A DNA stretch of 32,000 nt, from positions 480,001 through 512,000 of the forward strand of contig JAFGBS010000009.1 in assembly GCA_016933055.1 (NCBI GenBank), read 5' to 3'. The position numbers and the translations under genes are program-made. Of this stretch, positions 7,934 to 22,005 are shown one piece after another (within the stretch, counting starts at the first letter, position 1; every line of letters starts with the position of its first letter). The stretch is from Promethearchaeota archaeon. Its GTDB lineage: Archaea; Asgardarchaeota; Lokiarchaeia; Sigyniarchaeales; Promethearchaeaceae. Under the pieces are notes generated by a model. That model did not search any database. It saw only the letters and a list, made by a program, of their open reading frames with translations, and was not told where the DNA came from.

Positions 7934-8134
7934 TTATTGCAGACGGTTATACTCTAATAGATCATCAATTAAGTTCACATGAGAAACCAACATTCTTTTG
8001 CAGCAAAATCGGGTAATGCCCAGCTTCTTAAATATCTCTTTGGCTTTAATTCCCTCTTTTTGTAATCGCAAATATTCTTCATATTTATCTGCAATAAGCT
8101 TTCCGCATGTAAAGCATCGTATTGGGATTATCAT
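7934..8134 (-). CDS. rpo10: RNA polymerase subunit Rpo10 (RpoN)
   Basis: MIIPIRCFTCGK...LGITRFCCKRMLVSHV. Confidence 0.97.
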   Translation of the reverse strand: MIIPIRCFTCGKLIADKYEEYLRLQKEGIKAKEIFKKLGITRFCCKRMLVSHVNLIDDLLEYNRLQ

Positions 8135-14557: not shown

Positions 14558-14890
14558 CTAAAGACCGCGAGCTTTTTTGAGACGCGCTTGCCTTAATTTT
14601 CGTTCTTTCTCCCATTTCTTACCACAAAACTTACAATATAATCCAAAAAGACTCTGATCTTCAATCTCAAATGGTTTGGCACATTTTACACAAACAGAAT
14701 GATATTCAAACCAATAAGCTTCATGATCTGGATCAATCTCGATTTCTTTTTCCTTTGAAATCCCGCATTGGTTACAATAGATCCCCGACAGAATTGCTTC
14801 GCCATCATAAAACATTTTACCGCATTTCACACAGCAGTTACTTTTGATTTCGTTCCATACAGGTTTTGAGTTTTTCCGAATTTTCTCCAT
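14558..14890 (-). CDS. Small protein with two tandem C4 zinc fingers and a basic tail
   Basis: CVKCGKMFYDGEAILSGIYCNQCG and CVKCAKPFEIEDQSLFGLYCKFCG have identical CxxC-x15-CxxC spacing. Confidence 0.7.
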   Translation of the reverse strand: MEKIRKNSKPVWNEIKSNCCVKCGKMFYDGEAILSGIYCNQCGISKEKEIEIDPDHEAYWFEYHSVCVKCAKPFEIEDQSLFGLYCKFCGKKWEKERKLRQARLKKARGL

Positions 14891-14943: not shown

Positions 14944-17916
14944 TTATGATGTTTTAATTGGATCTTCTTGAAGATTATCAATGTTAGTTTTTGATTGTAA
15001 TTTGGATAGAACTTTTCTCAGATATTTACCAGTATATGAACGGTCATTGACCGCTATTTCTTCTGGTGTTCCGGAGGCAATGATCTCCCCCCCGTTTTCA
15101 CCACCTTCTGGTCCCAAGTCAATGATATAATCCGCACTTTTAATTATGTCCAAATTATGTTCAATTACAACTACTGAATTGCCTTGATCGACTAATCGTT
15201 GAAGAGCTTTTATCAGAATCTTTACATCATGGAAATGTAAACCTGTAGTGGGTTCATCCAGCAAGAAAAGCGTATTTCCTGTGGAGCGTTTAGATAATTC
15301 TCTGGATAATTTCATTCTCTGTGCTTCTCCACCACTTAACGTAGTGGAGCTCTGTCCCAACTCAATATAGCCCAAACCGACATCAACAACGGTTTGTAAT
15401 ATTTCGTTTATCTTTTGATTATTTTCGAAGAATTCTAATGCTTGGTTGTGGGTCATTCGCAAAACTTCGTAGATATTTTTACCTTTATATTTCACTTCTA
15501 AAGTTTCTTCATTATATCTTTGCCCTTGACACACATCACATTTCACGTACACATCAGGGAGGAAATGCATTTCAATAAGGTTATACCCCAAACCACCACA
15601 TTTTTCACACCTTCCCGCTTTTGTATTAAACGAAAAACGACCTTTCTCATATCCTCGAATCTTTGCTTCTTCAGTTTTTGCAAAAGTGTCTCGTATATAA
15701 TCGAAAGCTTTTGTATATGTGGCTGGTACTGATTTAGGAGTTCTCCCAATCGGGCTCTGATCAATGTTAATTATTTTATCAATATATTCCAATCCTTCGA
15801 TAGTGTCATATTTTATGTGCAATCCTTTCTTCTTGCGGCGTAAAGATTCTTCTACTGCGTTGAGGAGAACTTCCTGAACTAATGATGATTTACCAGCACC
15901 CGAAACGCCCGTTACACATGTAAACACTCCTAGTGGAATCTCTGCAGTAACACTTTTCAGATTATTTTCCCGAGCACCACTGATACGGATTCTAGATTCA
16001 GAGAGAGGCCTTCGAGATTTAGGAAGGCATATTTTCTCTTTTCCGGATAAGTATCTGCCTGTGATAGAACGTGGATTATTCATAACTGTTTCTAAATTAC
16101 CCGTTTCTACGATTTCTCCTCCTTTTTCCCCTCCAAATGGTCCGATATCCACAATGAAATCCGCAGCGCGTATCACATCTTCATCATGTTCCACAATTAG
16201 AACGGTATTTCCTCGCTTCTTTAACTCAATAAGCATATTGATCAACTTAGACTTATCTCGGGGATGCAGGCCTATCGTAGGTTCATCAAGTACATAAAGT
16301 ACTCCCACAAGATTTGATCCAATTTGTGTAGCTAATCGAATGCGCTCACTTTCTCCACCTGAGAGAGTACGAGCCACACGGTCCAATGAAATATAATCTA
16401 ATCCAACATTTTCTAGGAAAAAATACCTCGAATGAATTTCTTTAAGGATTTCCTTAGCAATCGTTCGTTCCCGTTTGGATAATTTTACACAGTTGAACCA
16501 ACGAATTGCTTCGGATACATACATCCGTGATACTTCCCATATGTTTTTGTCATTGATAGTTACAGCAAGACTAACTGGTTTTAATCGTTTTCCTTTACAT
16601 GCGCTGCATTCGTATTCACGCATGAATTGTTCATACCACTCTCGCATCCCTTGGGATTTTGTTCTCAAGTATCTATTCTGAAGGATGGTAATAATACCTT
16701 TAAACGGACGCTTATACCTGACACTAAAATGTACTTCATCTTCGTCCTCTTCTTCTTCATTCTGTGAATCATATCCTCCATTACGTTCAAAATTAAAGGA
16801 AATTTTTTCTTTTCCCGTTCCATATAGGAATTTATTCCAAAATTCATCAGGAAGATCATCAATGGATTGAGTAATGTCCACATTGTAATATTCTGCAAGA
16901 GCTTCGATGGTTTTCCAACTCCAACTATTAATTGAACCAAACCCTCCCACTCGGGTCAACCCGCTATCATAAAGATTGACGGATGTATCGGGGAATATTT
17001 TAGCCTCATCAAAATTTAGAACGGTTCCTAAACCTTTGCAAAATTCGCACATTCCGTAAGGAGTGTTGAAGCTGAAGTCCCTAGCTTGCAGTTTTTCATA
17101 CGAAACACCACACTCGGGACAGAAAAAGTGCTCTGAGAATATTTTGGAATCTCCATTTACTATGGAGATTTTTACTAGTCCTTCAGCAAGTTTAAGGGAT
17201 GTTTCGATAGAATTAGCTACACGTGAACGGAATTCATCATCTTCTTCCGTTTTCATAATCAACCGGTCAACAATAACATCAATATCATGTTTGATATTCC
17301 TATCCAAGTTAATAGGTTCCTCTAAAAGGTATTCAATGGCTTCTTTTCCTTGATCTTGAATCATGATCCTTGAATATCCACTTTTCTGCAACTTCAGGAA
17401 TAATTTTTCATAGGTTCCCTTTTTTCCCCGTACCATGGGTGCAAGAATCTTGAATTTTGTTCCGGTGTTAAGAGATTGCAGAATTTCATGGATAATCTCT
17501 TGACTGCTTTTTGGAGTAATTTCTCTTCTACATATAGGACAATGGGGAATTCCGATATTTGCCCATAATAATCTTAAATAATCATAAATTTCGGTAACCG
17601 TACCCACAGTTGAACGTGGGTTTTTTGAGACGGTTTTCTGTTCAATTGCAATAGCAGGAGACAATCCCTCAATATAATCAACATCTGGCTTATCCATTCC
17701 TTCTAAAAACTGGCGTGCATAAGCAGAAAGGGATTGTAAATATCTTCGCTGACCCTCTGCGTAAATAGTATCAATCGCTAAACTAGACTTACCGGAGCCA
17801 CTTAGACCAGTAAATACAACCAATTTATCACGTGGGATTTTCACATCAATATTTTTGAGATTGTGTTGTCGTGCGCCTTTTACAATGATGTATTTGGAAT
17901 TATTGGGATTGGTCAT
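14944..17916 (-). CDS. uvrA: Excinuclease ABC subunit A
   Basis: [20 protein letters not shown], two ABC cassettes ([37 protein letters not shown]) and zinc modules. Confidence 0.98.
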
Positions 17917-18094
17917 TTCTATGTTACCGTTTCAAGATCTTCAATTTAGTCCCACTTTTTGAGTTTACTACTTTGAATTAAAAAGAAGAATGCGCTGGAG
18001 AAATAATTAATTGAGGAAAAAAAACCGCAACTTATTGATAATCTAAGTATTGATCTACTTTTATTAATCCAAATTACAAGTTGCTTTTGAAGTA

Positions 18095-19555
18095 TTAGAC
18101 ATATATATTTTCCTTGGGATCGGGGGGGTCTGTATCTTCAATAGGGAATGTATCTTCTTCCAAGATTTGGGTTAATTCCCATTCCCGTTCGTTTCCTTCT
18201 CGATCAAATACTCTCAGGAGATCTAAGGAACTTTCCCCTTTGGTCGATCCAAGAATCATATTAATATAGTACATGTTGAAAGTTTGACGATCTTGATCGG
18301 AGGGAATTGGGGGACCGAGAGTATGGGAATGAATGAATCCTACAATACTCGTATCCATAAAAGGAATTTGGTCTTTATAATATCCGGTTGCAAAAGGAGT
18401 AGAAAAATATCTTGCTGGGAGCCGGAGACGCCATATTACCCATCTATCTAGCTGTACAAAACCACCCATCTCGTTTGGAGCATGTTCCTTGGCCGTTTGT
18501 TTTGCTAAGTTAAGGAACTGCTGAGATATTTGGATTTTTCCAAATCCATAAAATCCTAAACATGCTTTAAGTTCCCTTAGGACTTCTGTTAAGCTATAAG
18601 GTTCACTCTTCAGCCACGTCCGGAGGGAATATAACCTATCAGACAAGGATTGAGTAGATAATTTTTCTACAATAAAAACGGGGAATTCAAATTTTGGAGG
18701 ATCGGGATAATCACTCAAATCCATGAAAACTGCATAATTTTCTCCTAAATCGACGGAATACCTATTTTCATAGTTATCTAATTTCTCAATAGTGAACATA
18801 TTGGACGCTTTCTTAATTTGTTGGGATACGTTGAAGATTTGCTCTTTAATTCTCGTTTTTTTTTGTGCAATTAGTTCTTTCAACCTAGGAGGTGTATATA
18901 ATTCGTCCACTTTTCTTTCAAGTTCGCTATAAGATGGATATTTCCTTATAATTTCCATATCTTTTGGCTCGAGTGTATCAAAAGCATTTATTGCAGTCTT
19001 AAATCGTCCTTTAAATTCTAACAGTAGTGTTCGAGCTAAATCTTGATAGGATTTTATAAATAAACTATTCTCAGGTTCAAGCGTATAAGCTTCTTTATAC
19101 ATATTTAAAGCATGCTCGAAATTTTTTAATTTCTCATACTGGGTTGCTGCGAGATACGTCGCTAGTTGAGCTACTTCGGGATAATTATCGCGCATATACT
19201 CGCATAATTCTACAGCCACACCTGGTCTTTTTATTGAAATAATTATTTCTGCACGCTTTAACAATGCTTCCGCAGGTTCTCCCTCAATTGTATCCAGTTT
19301 TTGATACTGTTCTATTAAAAACCCCTTTATATCTTCCATCATTTTCCCTAAACATTCGTGATTTTCCGAAAGCCGATGCGTGGAACAAAATTTCTTCCCA
19401 CAATATGTGCATTTATTCATATAATTTTGGATTTTGATATTGCAGTAATAACAAAGCTCTAAATTTTCGTAATTATTTGATAATTCCTCGTATAATTTGT
19501 TCTTTTTTTGTTTCCTTATTGTTAAACCCCTCCTATAGAAACATATTAAAAACAA
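18095..19555 (-). CDS. Multidomain AN1 zinc finger / TPR / UEV(E2)-like / JAMM (MPN+) metalloisopeptidase; start is either TTG 19555 or ATA 19519
   Basis: AN1 ligands CYYC..CTYC.KKFCSTHRLSENHEC; TPR-like YEKLKNFEHALNMYKEAYTLEPEN; DYPDPPKFEF...LRTW...LTEVLREL; JAMM PNEMGG...HSHTLGPPIPSDQD. Confidence 0.8.
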   Translation of the reverse strand: MFLICFYRRGLTIRKQKKNKLYEELSNNYENLELCYYCNIKIQNYMNKCTYCGKKFCSTHRLSENHECLGKMMEDIKGFLIEQYQKLDTIEGEPAEALLKRAEIIISIKRPGVAVELCEYMRDNYPEVAQLATYLAATQYEKLKNFEHALNMYKEAYTLEPENSLFIKSYQDLARTLLLEFKGRFKTAINAFDTLEPKDMEIIRKYPSYSELERKVDELYTPPRLKELIAQKKTRIKEQIFNVSQQIKKASNMFTIEKLDNYENRYSVDLGENYAVFMDLSDYPDPPKFEFPVFIVEKLSTQSLSDRLYSLRTWLKSEPYSLTEVLRELKACLGFYGFGKIQISQQFLNLAKQTAKEHAPNEMGGFVQLDRWVIWRLRLPARYFSTPFATGYYKDQIPFMDTSIVGFIHSHTLGPPIPSDQDRQTFNMYYINMILGSTKGESSLDLLRVFDREGNEREWELTQILEEDTFPIEDTDPPDPKENIYV

Positions 19556-19557
19556 TA

Positions 19558-21540
19558 TTATTTTATACTTTGTGCTAGTTCTTTTATTTTATCCCGAAGA
19601 AACGCTGCTTTCTCGAATTCTAAATTATCCGCATACTCTCGCATCAAAGAATCCAATTCATTAAGTAAATCAATCTTGTTTGCTTCTTCTTCAATTCTTT
19701 CCTCAATGGTTTTTTTAAGTGTGCTCTCCGCTTCTTCTTCATCTATAACTTCACGTGAAAGGGATTCTCTTAGTTGTTTTTGGATAGTTTGCGGTGTAAT
19801 ATCATGCTCCCTATTGTATCTAATCTGTTTTGCGCGCCTTCGATTGGTTTCCGCAATTGCTTCCGTAATGGATTTAGTAATTTTATCTGCGTATAAGATT
19901 GCTTTTCCATTTACATTCCGTGAAGCTCGACCAATAGTTTGGATTAGGGAACGTGTATTTCGCAGAAATCCTTCTCTATCCGCATCCAATATAGCAACAA
20001 GGGAAACTTCTGGTAAATCTAATCCTTCTCGTAGCAAATTAATACCCACAACTACTTCAATTTCACCTGAACGTAGTTTTCTCAAGATTTCTGACCGTTC
20101 TACTGTGTCAATATCACTATGAAGATACTTTATTTTTATACCCCGCTCGGCATAGTATTCTGCTATGTTTTCTGCAAGGCGTTTTGTTAATGTGGTTACA
20201 AGAACTCGTTCATTTCGTTGAACCACTTGTCGAATTTCATTTAATAAATCTTCGATTTGATCCTCTGTTGGTCGAATTTCAGTCTGAGGATCTACTAAAC
20301 CGGTGGGACGAATCACTTGATCAGCAATAAGCTTGCTTCTCTCCAATTCCCAATCCCCGGGAGTGGCACTGGTGAAAATAATTTGGTTGATTTTGTTATC
20401 CCATTCAATAAATTTGAGAGGACGATTGTCATACGCTGCCTTTAAACGGAAACCAAAGTCAATAAGATTCTTCTTTCTTGAAATATCTCCTCCTATCATT
20501 CCGTGTACCTGTGGAACTCCTATGTGACTCTCATCCATCACCATTAGATAATCATCGGGAAAATAATCCAAAAGCGTGTAAGGCCTCTCCCCGATCTTCC
20601 TACCATCAAAATAGCGAGAATAATTCTCAATTCCTTTACAAGTCCCAAATTCAAGAATAGTTTCAAGATCATAGTTCGTTCTCTGCTCTAATCGTTGAGC
20701 TTCCGCATATTTTCCTTGTTTTTTGAACTCTTCCACCTCATCGTTGAGATCTTCTCGAATTTGTCTTATAATAGCTTCCAACACTTCAAAATTTGTAACA
20801 TATTCACTAGCTGGAAACAGAAATATTTCATTCACATTTCGTATTGTTTTTCCCGTATATGGATTTACTTCATGAATATCTTCCACCTCATCGCCAAAAT
20901 AAAAGAGCTTGTACCCTAAATTCATCTCTGCGGAGTAGATTATCACAGTATCACCTTTGACTCTGAATAGTCCTGGGCGTATCTCGATATCGTTTCGAGC
21001 ATAAGAGATTTTAACCAATTTTTGGGAAAGATCCCGAATACTCAACGTTTGTCCTTTTTTTATTTTTATAATGCTCTCCTTACGGAAATTTGGGTCACCA
21101 GAAGCGAATATACAGGAAACTGAGGCAATAACTATTACATCACGCCGAGTTAATAATGAACTCATAGCCTTTAAACGATACCAACGGATCTGTTCATTGA
21201 TATCCAGATCTTTTTCAATATATAGACCTTTTTCAGGTACATATGCTTCCGGTTGATAATAATCATAGTAAGAGATGAAATATTCTACTGCATTGTCTGG
21301 AAAAAGTTCCTTCAACTCTTGATACAATTGTGCAGCTAGTGTTTTATTTGGAGCCATCACAATAGTTGGACGTTGCACTTTTTCGATGACTTTCGCAATA
21401 CTAAAAGTTTTACCCGTTCCAGTCGCTCCAAGTAAAGTTATGTATTTATCTCTACGATTGAGAGCATTCACAATATCTTGAATTGCTGTAGGTTGGTCCC
21501 CTTTTGGCATATAGTCAGATTTAACCCTAAACTCGTCCAT
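19558..21540 (-). CDS. uvrB: Excinuclease ABC subunit B
   Basis: GATGTGKT, beta-hairpin YYDYYQPEAY, MDESH, GINLLREGLDLPEV, C-terminal UVR domain LEFEKAAFLRDKI; GGTGA SD. Confidence 0.98.
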   Translation of the reverse strand: MDEFRVKSDYMPKGDQPTAIQDIVNALNRRDKYITLLGATGTGKTFSIAKVIEKVQRPTIVMAPNKTLAAQLYQELKELFPDNAVEYFISYYDYYQPEAYVPEKGLYIEKDLDINEQIRWYRLKAMSSLLTRRDVIVIASVSCIFASGDPNFRKESIIKIKKGQTLSIRDLSQKLVKISYARNDIEIRPGLFRVKGDTVIIYSAEMNLGYKLFYFGDEVEDIHEVNPYTGKTIRNVNEIFLFPASEYVTNFEVLEAIIRQIREDLNDEVEEFKKQGKYAEAQRLEQRTNYDLETILEFGTCKGIENYSRYFDGRKIGERPYTLLDYFPDDYLMVMDESHIGVPQVHGMIGGDISRKKNLIDFGFRLKAAYDNRPLKFIEWDNKINQIIFTSATPGDWELERSKLIADQVIRPTGLVDPQTEIRPTEDQIEDLLNEIRQVVQRNERVLVTTLTKRLAENIAEYYAERGIKIKYLHSDIDTVERSEILRKLRSGEIEVVVGINLLREGLDLPEVSLVAILDADREGFLRNTRSLIQTIGRASRNVNGKAILYADKITKSITEAIAETNRRRAKQIRYNREHDITPQTIQKQLRESLSREVIDEEEAESTLKKTIEERIEEEANKIDLLNELDSLMREYADNLEFEKAAFLRDKIKELAQSIK

Positions 21541-21648
21541 ATTTTCACCTTATTGAATTGATAAGCAAAATTGTGGGTCACCAAAAAATATAATCCCAAT
21601 AAAACAAAAGGAGAGTAATGCATTATAGACTCTTATTCAGAGAAGAGG

Positions 21649-21686
21649 GAATTTGAACAAAGGGAACTATTTACGTGTTCAAATTC
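21649..21686. repeat. Perfect 11-bp inverted repeat with 16-nt spacer upstream of uvrB
   Basis: GAATTTGAACA (21649-21659) and TGTTCAAATTC (21676-21686). Confidence 0.75.
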
Positions 21687-21774
21687 AACGAGGGATTTGC
21701 GATCCCTATTCAGGTTTTTGTATTTTTTAACTCAATTATTGACAGAATAGTATTACAAATCGAAAGTTACATGA

Positions 21775-22005
21775 TTATGAATTTAGATTATCCTCTAATT
21801 TATCGGGAGGTAATTCAAAATCCAGGAGCTTAATGTTTTGAAGTTCTTTTTCAAGAAATTCTTCTATTGCTTTTCTGATTCCGTCTGAACGAGAACTAAT
21901 TATTCCCATTTCTTGTAATTTAGCTAAATTAGTACAATATATTTCGGGTAGAGCAATAGTGATGTTTTGTAGTTTCGCGTCTTCTTCTTTCTTCACAGAA
22001 ATCAT
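21775..22005 (-). CDS. Ribbon-helix-helix (CopG/MetJ-like) DNA-binding protein
   Basis: NITIALPE beta-ribbon, then helix-G-x3-SRSDGIRKAIEEFL. Confidence 0.85.
   Translation of the reverse strand: MISVKKEEDAKLQNITIALPEIYCTNLAKLQEMGIISSRSDGIRKAIEEFLEKELQNIKLLDFELPPDKLEDNLNS

Follow-up and report, generated by a model that had tools for sequence, protein, structure and literature searches.

A predicted ubiquitin-related isopeptidase of AN1-TPR-UBC-like-JAMM architecture encoded between uvrB and uvrA in one clade of Promethearchaeota

The minimal archaeal isopeptidases of the Prok-JAB type, AfJAMM (AF2198), PfJAMM1 and HvJAMM1, are single-domain proteins of 120-140 aa. In eukaryotes, proteins with an AN1 finger, e.g., yeast Cuz1 and human ZFAND1, ZFAND2 and ZFAND5, act as adaptors of the proteasome and Cdc48, and the hydrophobic-tyrosine-X (HbYX) motif, carried by PAN, archaeal Cdc48, Rpt2/3/5 and Blm10/PA200, docks regulators into the pockets of the 20S alpha-ring. 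Ubiquitin and p97 further control XPC, DDB2 and RNA polymerase II in eukaryotic nucleotide excision repair (NER). Rpn11 of the 26S proteasome lid and CsRpn11 of Caldiarchaeum serve here as further systems for comparison (PMC6043591). The present text deals with a gene located between uvrB and uvrA in a stretch of 32,000 nt, referred to as the window, from a Promethearchaeota archaeon (GCA_016933055.1, contig JAFGBS010000009.1, positions 480,001-512,000 of the forward strand). Its product, hereafter the JAMM protein, carries an AN1 finger, a TPR region, a UBC-like middle domain and a JAMM/MPN+ metalloprotease domain. With moderate confidence, we favour the reading that it acts as an isopeptidase on ubiquitin or on a ubiquitin-like protein, is tied to the proteasome and Cdc48 and came onto the uvrB transcript in a single clade.

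The evidence for a peptidase lies in the C-terminal half of the protein. Prok-JAB (PF14464) matches there with 31.5 bits, above the Pfam gathering cut-off of 25 bits, and the JAMM motif E-x(n)-H-S/T-H-x7-S-x2-D is intact, with E362, H409-S410-H411, S419 and D422 being invariant in all nine members of the full-length family alignment. In an AlphaFold2 model derived from 20 sequences (mean predicted local distance difference test score, pLDDT, 77.8; about 90 across residues 240-465), an MPN fold at residues 340-463 is followed by a disordered tail. AfJAMM, PfJAMM1, Rpn11 and CsRpn11 are the best matches of this domain, the minimal AfJAMM/PfJAMM1 type being the nearest. From its sequence, the protein is thus predicted to be an isopeptidase acting on ubiquitin or a ubiquitin-like modifier. 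The AN1 finger follows the pattern C-x2-C-x10-C-x2-C-x4-C-x2-H-x5-H-x-C with the full C6H2 ligand set (C37, C40, C51, C54, C59, H62, H68 and C70 in the translation), and the AN1 structures 1wfp and 1wg2 as well as Cuz1 5ij4 were obtained as profile matches.

The middle domain probably adopts a UBC fold of the RWD/UEV-like kind which lacks the catalytic cysteine and is catalytically dead. Its YPxxP motif is nearly invariant and its tryptophan invariant in the 20 sequences, both placed as in UBC/RWD/UEV folds. It lacks the catalytic features of active E2 enzymes (UQ_con), residues 288-313, between the YPxxP and W motifs, containing neither HPN nor cysteine in any member. Profile matches of this domain were sub-threshold (Pfam BRE, 0.039, in three of the 20 members; BRCC45 among PDB sequences, E 1.8). 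An hhalign comparison of the middle-domain profile with the two E2 proteins of the genome aligned YPxxP and W with a probability below 4%, the Atlas neighbour cluster with UQ_con/RWD was reached at a TM of 0.22, and the domain modelled alone had a pLDDT of 60. No usable match resulted from a protein atlas search with residues 236-350.

The JAMM protein appears to be a fusion because both of its modules occur separately in other Lokiarchaeia. Residues 250-486 match a stand-alone UBC-like plus JAB family of about 225 aa, which occurs in the majority of the 40 relatives searched, and residues 32-171 match an AN1-TPR protein encoded in the same genome. The fused form is rare. An exhaustive search across 1.84 billion representatives revealed only three clusters at 50% identity with the full architecture, and a word-indexed search returned eight proteins, each with about 60% identity, which are assigned to Promethearchaeota wherever named. 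Of 400 species-representative genomes of the phylum, this one alone encodes the full-length fused protein; accordingly, no full-length orthologue was found in the 40 relatives or in the 399 other phylum representatives. In the literature searched, neither an AN1-TPR-UBC-like-JAMM architecture nor a JAMM gene inside uvrBA is described. The architecture thus appears to be undescribed in the searchable literature, yet each of its modules is of a known kind. The genome contains a sole stand-alone UBC-like plus MPN paralogue (G000:C2, L060:6805-7485; G000 denotes the genome under study), the counterparts of which in other genomes keep the JAMM residues. This paralogue is classified as MPN-minus because the JAMM glutamate, both histidines, the serine and the aspartate are lost. 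By analogy to Rpn8 and Rpn11, it could pair with the active JAMM protein.

At its extreme C-terminus, the JAMM protein ends in an HbYX-like triplet. Such a terminus is present in nine of nine full-length members (IYV, IYL, YYL, FYL, LYV, MYT) and in none of 11 stand-alone homologues, with the preceding approximately 20 residues varying among the full-length members. As a background, 29 of the 2251 open reading frames (ORFs) of at least 200 aa in the genome end in this manner (1.3%). The genome encodes two proteasome alpha subunits, one of them at C28:114524-115243, and three Cdc48 paralogues, and its ATPases of the Cdc48/PAN type end in MFS, MFS, AYT, LYS, VYT and IFS. A distant homologue (P0014, 33% identity, ending in MYT) is encoded 100 nt 3' of a Cdc48-type gene with two AAA modules, the product of which ends in LYS (L028:1-2907); a 205-aa ORF without family match and an Arf/Ras-type small GTPase follow. 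Complex prediction with three copies of proteasome alpha and residues 346-486 gave a score of 0.20 and a mark of 0.34, values that speak neither for nor against an association. By analogy, a role of the protein at the proteasome or Cdc48 would be plausible, given its AN1 finger, its HbYX-like tail and the Cdc48-type gene beside the distant homologue. To our knowledge, no monomeric deubiquitinase with an HbYX-like tail has been described.

The positions of the gene, its domains and the surrounding signals are compiled in the table. Identity and shared orientation of the RHH (ribbon-helix-helix), uvrB, JAMM and uvrA genes, as stated in a preliminary description of this DNA, are borne out by ORFs and Pfam. 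The family domains of both Uvr proteins lie above threshold (UvrB: UvrB_inter 2.5e-24, 85.6 bits, UvrB 9e-21, 73.9 bits, UVR 4e-9; UvrA: UvrA_inter 1e-27, 96.4 bits, UvrA_DNA-bind 1e-20, 74.4 bits). The intergenic distances given there are likewise exact: the uvrB stop codon TAA (19560-19558) is followed after 2 nt by TTG 19555 and after 38 nt by ATA 19519, and 178 nt including the T8 tract separate the stop codon of the JAMM gene (18097-18095) from the uvrA ATG at 17916. A 110-aa ORF directly 3' of uvrA (14558-14890, minus strand) has weak matches to a double zinc ribbon and DUF7564 and is not found at that position in L001 and L002, two of the further loci introduced below.

Table. Coordinates of genes, protein domains and candidate signals within the window; bit scores are set against Pfam gathering cut-offs where given
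Feature	Position	Strand	Remarks
RHH (CopG-like) small protein gene	21775..22005	-	76 aa; Pfam RHH_1 E 0.0013, 19.0 bits, slightly below the 20.5 cut-off
Inverted repeat GAATTTGAACA / TGTTCAAATTC	21649..21686	-	11-nt arms, 100% complementary, 16-nt spacer; candidate operator
TATA-like box TCTATAATG	21620..21628	-	about 85 nt before uvrB ATG; TATAA invariant in three loci
uvrB	19558..21540	-	660 aa; Pfam UvrB_inter, UvrB, Helicase_C, UVR
SD-like AGGAGGGG between uvrB and JAMM gene	19527..19534	-	ATA 19519 lies 7 nt downstream
AN1-TPR-UBC-like-JAMM gene	18095..19555	-	486 aa from TTG 19555, 474 aa from ATA 19519
AN1 zinc finger, residues 35-70	19346..19453	-	zf-AN1 (PF01428) 32.5 bits vs 27.9 cut-off
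TPR region, residues ~75-207	18935..19333	-	Pfam TPR; solenoid in the AlphaFold2 model
Middle domain, residues 243-335	18551..18829	-	alpha-beta4-alpha-alpha topology; Y283-P284-x-x-P287, W314
JAMM/MPN+ metalloprotease domain, residues 340-463	18167..18538	-	E362, H409, H411, S419, D422
C-terminal I-Y-V, HbYX-like end	18098..18106	-	on disordered acidic tail
T8 tract	18017..18024	-	after JAMM gene; candidate archaeal oligo-T termination signal
TATA-like A/T block	17976..17985	-	about 60-65 nt before uvrA ATG; candidate uvrA-only promoter
uvrA	14944..17916	-	990 aa; Pfam UvrA_inter, UvrA_DNA-bind, ABC_tran

The arrangement was compared with three further carrier contigs, i.e., L001 (GCA_054381575.1), L002 (a JGI metagenome) and L063, and with the uvrB loci of 20 species-representative relatives. 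In the search for uvrC, which covered 22 uvrB loci, usually about 8-9 kb of DNA on each side of uvrB were available, less at contig ends. The order RHH-uvrB-JAMM-uvrA recurs in L001 and L002 and the order uvrB-JAMM-uvrA in L063; on a fifth contig, the flanking ORFs fit by size, which is the only feature compared. Hence, the adjacency, the uniqueness of which to this genome would have spoken against the proposal of the preliminary description, is kept in three further contigs. Identities across the carriers are 81-86% for UvrB, 78-89% for UvrA and about 60% for the JAMM protein. Non-synonymous divergence (dN) amounts to about 0.25 for the JAMM gene (L001, L002 and L063 only), 0.10-0.14 for uvrB and 0.14-0.17 for uvrA. 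Synonymous divergence (dS) is saturated between the carrier genomes, so that no dN/dS ratios are given; saturated dS together with a dN of about 0.25 therefore indicates that the JAMM gene has long been held in place under purifying selection. The carriers are syntenic over more than 20 kb, with genes for a HAD hydrolase and an ORF of 358/370 aa to one side and those for a methyltransferase, an abhydrolase and aIF5B to the other. Inheritance by descent alone accounts for the adjacency of the JAMM and uvr genes, and a linkage across independent lineages was not found, the four contigs representing one clade.

Of 41 related genomes, 38 encode UvrB, and the uvrB and uvrA genes of the relatives are orthologous to those of the window (54-68% identity). 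The two genes share orientation in 18 of the 20 relatives compared. Among these 20 relatives, uvrA directly follows uvrB after a spacer of 30-440 nt in 14, in four unrelated genes lie in between, and in two uvrA was not found in the DNA fetched. The JAMM gene stands beside uvrB in none of the 20; the closest relative (G002, UvrB 68% identical) features a 145-nt spacer without insertion. Because of this absence in all 20 relatives and the direct succession of uvrB and uvrA in 14 of them, the placement of the JAMM gene is interpreted as an insertion and not as the ancestral state. The junction received other genes in four lineages, namely HAD, HTH and PEMT genes together with a Big-domain protein in the first, a zinc-ribbon protein and a peroxiredoxin in the second, SIR2-TPR and radical SAM in the third and radical SAM alone in the fourth. 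The SIR2-TPR gene lies at L045:6267-8609 (G018), and the radical-SAM genes at L045:8692-9729 (G018) and L042:1472-2551 (G020), both in genomes of another family. The stop-to-stop frame around uvrB comprises about 741-743 aa in two genera (G004, G006, G010-G013), 767 aa in G009 and about 670 aa elsewhere; the longer frames may be due either to an extended N-terminus or simply to a frame that happens to stay open upstream. None of the examined loci of distant homologues with 33-38% identity (P0013, the cluster member P0064 and P0014) lies beside uvr genes, the neighbours of P0013 and P0064 being unrelated genes, with another AN1 protein encoded close by.

Upstream of the JAMM gene, a Shine-Dalgarno (SD) motif AGGAGG(G) occurs 20-45 nt past the uvrB stop codon in all four carrier loci (SD/start regions: window 19517-19534; L001 approximately 7950-7967; L063 approximately 812-831). 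The codon 7-8 nt after it is ATA in the window, ATC in L001 and L063 and TTC in L002. In L001, no ATG, GTG or TTG precedes the first AN1 cysteine, and the TTG 19555 of the window is not conserved. This suggests that translation starts at a near-cognate AUA or AUC codon. A near-cognate, SD-led start tight behind uvrB is in turn what would be expected of an internal operon gene translated at low level. The 38-nt spacer after uvrB shows no TATA-like element, and the gene is probably co-transcribed with uvrB, as judged from these signals.

The possible own promoter of uvrA that had been proposed in the preliminary description is probable, since a T-run follows the JAMM gene in three of the four loci and a TATA-like block precedes uvrA in all four. 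At the place aligned to the T8 tract, L001 and L002 carry T5 and L063 carries TTTAT, i.e., runs of at least five T occur in three of the four loci. The block with the TATA-like box ahead of uvrA is conserved in four of four carriers, and the 145-nt spacer of G002 contains an A/T box resembling it. On the other side of uvrB, the RHH protein has orthologues with 66% identity in the corresponding position of L001 and L002, and in none of the 20 other relatives was an RHH ORF found ahead of uvrB on the same strand. The RHH-uvrB spacer of 234 nt is 73% identical (mean column identity, three loci). It contains the inverted repeat, of which the same arm recurs in L001 (5804-5843) and L002 (5725-5763), just upstream of the TATA-like box, followed by a conserved leader and an AGGTGA SD motif. 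We regard this repeat as a candidate operator through which the RHH protein might control uvrB and the JAMM gene. Scans for bacterial sigma-70 promoters and rho-independent terminators stayed at background level and were not considered relevant because the host is an archaeon.

Components of both repair and ubiquitin modification are encoded elsewhere in the genome. The preliminary description correctly noted the lack of uvrC in the window and asked for its location along with those of ubiquitin, E1 and E2, all of which were found, together with a separate Rpn11-like JAB. The uvrC gene lies on contig C16 between genes for AlaRS and a ZIP transporter (G000:C16:117886-119766; 477.7 bits, above the cut-off). 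About 23 kb away, the same contig carries an operon of ubiquitin, E1 (ThiF), E2 (UQ_con) and JAB (PF01398, Rpn11-like; G000:C16:93130-96000; L052, L061). Two ubiquitin-like proteins are encoded in the genome, at C16:93130-93303 and C17:520661-520843. Within the DNA fetched, uvrC was near uvrB in none of the 22 uvrB loci, so that its lack in the window is ordinary for the order; the statement that uvrA, uvrB and uvrC are normally neighbours in archaea does not hold here.

According to the favoured reading of a proteasome- or Cdc48-linked isopeptidase, an AN1-TPR module and a UBC-like plus JAB module would have been fused into one protein, and the fused gene would then have been inserted behind the uvrB stop codon in a clade of genus or family level. 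As the insertion would have occurred upstream of a promoter-like element possibly already serving uvrA, the gene would have joined the uvrB unit. It would thereby ride on the uvrB transcript, be weakly translated from its SD-led non-canonical start and be made along with NER proteins, and its product would trim ubiquitin-like conjugates at the proteasome/Cdc48 machinery. Co-transcription with uvrB, association with the proteasome or Cdc48 and effects on Uvr proteins are all points that we infer. Several considerations weigh against this reading. The interpretation of the C-terminus as HbYX depends on three residues and analogy, and the UBC-fold call on the middle domain is without statistical support, all tests having remained below significance. 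The substrate may be a modifier of the SAMP/Urm1 type and not ubiquitin because the JAMM domain is nearest to the AfJAMM/PfJAMM1 type. In addition, a promoter could reside inside the 3' end of uvrB, and the retention of the gene over saturated dS together with the clade-specific RHH gene and the operator-like repeat might stem from selection for a true link to NER.

Such a link is the core of a first alternative, in which the JAMM protein is a direct NER accessory that strips ubiquitin-like marks from UvrA, UvrB or lesion-stalled or cross-linked proteins and possibly hands these over to Cdc48 and the proteasome, in analogy to the ubiquitin/p97 control of eukaryotic NER. The position of the gene exactly within the uvrB-uvrA pair and close behind uvrB on four diverged contigs speaks for it, as do the purifying selection, the gain of an RHH gene and a conserved palindrome before uvrB in the same clade and the complete set of ubiquitin, E1 and E2 in the genome; the combination of a UEV-type and a JAMM domain moreover recalls BRCC45-BRCC36 of the BRCA1-A complex, based on weak matches only. 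However, the linkage is limited to one clade with a syntenic wider neighbourhood, the gene is missing beside uvrB in all 20 relatives, its 33-38%-identical homologues reside away from uvr genes, the junction took up unrelated genes elsewhere (HAD, PEMT, peroxiredoxin, SIR2-TPR, radical SAM) and no Uvr-interaction motif was identified. A direct role in NER, although attractive in view of eukaryotic NER and the BRCC36-UEV analogy, is regarded as unlikely. The same observations bear on the hybrid system of the preliminary description, in which ubiquitin-like modification regulates bacterial-type damage recognition: its support is limited to one narrow clade in which more than 20 kb are syntenic in any case, and the relatives with uvrB-uvrA lacking the gene, the unrelated junction genes and the homologues away from uvr lend it none.

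Alternatively, the gene might be a neutral passenger that arrived by chance rearrangement, uses its own expression signals, is unrelated to NER and was kept by simple inheritance. This would agree with the repeated uptake of unrelated genes at the junction, the distance of 145-440 nt already present between uvrB and uvrA in the family with a likely separate uvrA promoter, and the synteny of the surrounding 20 kb among the carriers. The very short spacer, the strong conserved SD motif and the lack of a canonical start are, however, typical of an internal operon gene and not of an independent archaeal transcript, which is often leaderless, and the 38-nt spacer shows no TATA-like element; a passenger is judged improbable. 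A function other than that of a deubiquitinase, i.e., a RadC-like one, a Cap3/Bil-type defence role or a catalytically silent scaffold, is very unlikely because the catalytic motif is invariant in all five residues, and it is further opposed by the best matches to AfJAMM, PfJAMM1, Rpn11 and CsRpn11, by the ubiquitin context suggested by the AN1 and UBC-like partners and by a neighbourhood without CD-NTase, E1/E2 or other defence genes. Of the individual candidates, a defence JAB of the CBASS/Bil type was ruled out for lack of partner genes nearby, and a RadC-type protein was rejected, the match being marginal and to a homologue only.

Asgard archaea are searched for stepping stones to eukaryotic ubiquitin signalling, and the JAMM protein joins four modules of the ubiquitin world in one chain. 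If its tail docks on the 20S particle, organisms that have no proteasome lid would possess in it a simple, self-docking equivalent of Rpn11. The placement inside uvrB-uvrA offers a concrete case on which to test if DNA repair came under ubiquitin-like control before eukaryotes arose, although probable co-expression in one small clade is all that the evidence shows so far. A far-reaching and quite doubtful proposal would be that an Asgard lineage coupled bacterial-type recognition by UvrAB to eukaryote-like turnover by ubiquitin, Cdc48 and the proteasome through an HbYX-tailed AN1-UEV-JAMM deubiquitinase on the uvrB transcript, which edits Uvr proteins or proteins trapped at lesions. If true, this coupling would stand as a prokaryotic precursor, or else an analogue, of NER under ubiquitin/p97 control and of the BRCC36-UEV module of the damage response, with the deubiquitinase possibly working as an MPN+/MPN- pair together with the catalytically dead paralogue.

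Compared with AfJAMM, PfJAMM1 and HvJAMM1, the protein from the window adds AN1, TPR and UBC-like parts in front of the protease domain and an HbYX-like tail behind it. In contrast to Rpn11 and CsRpn11, it possesses neither a long MPN domain rich in Ins-1/Ins-2 nor lid partners, and its docking would proceed through its own C-terminal tail. With Cuz1 and the ZFAND proteins it shares a canonical AN1 finger, including the profile match to Cuz1 5ij4, and the gene of one homologue directly follows that of a Cdc48-type ATPase; those are eukaryotic proteins without a protease domain, whereas the window protein lacks UBL and UIM. In BRCC36-BRCC45(BRE) of BRCA1-A and BRISC, UEV and JAMM reside on different subunits, alongside an MPN- partner; the resemblance shown by the middle domain is below significance and homology is not claimed. 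Like PAN, archaeal Cdc48, Rpt2/3/5 and Blm10/PA200, the window protein exposes hydrophobic-Tyr-X at the extreme C-terminus of a flexible tail, although the known HbYX binders are ring ATPases or large activators. At the level of gene order, finally, uvrB and uvrA lie 30-440 nt apart in the pairs of other Lokiarchaeia, whereas the carrier clade has an extra gene of 1.46 kb between them and a new RHH gene upstream.

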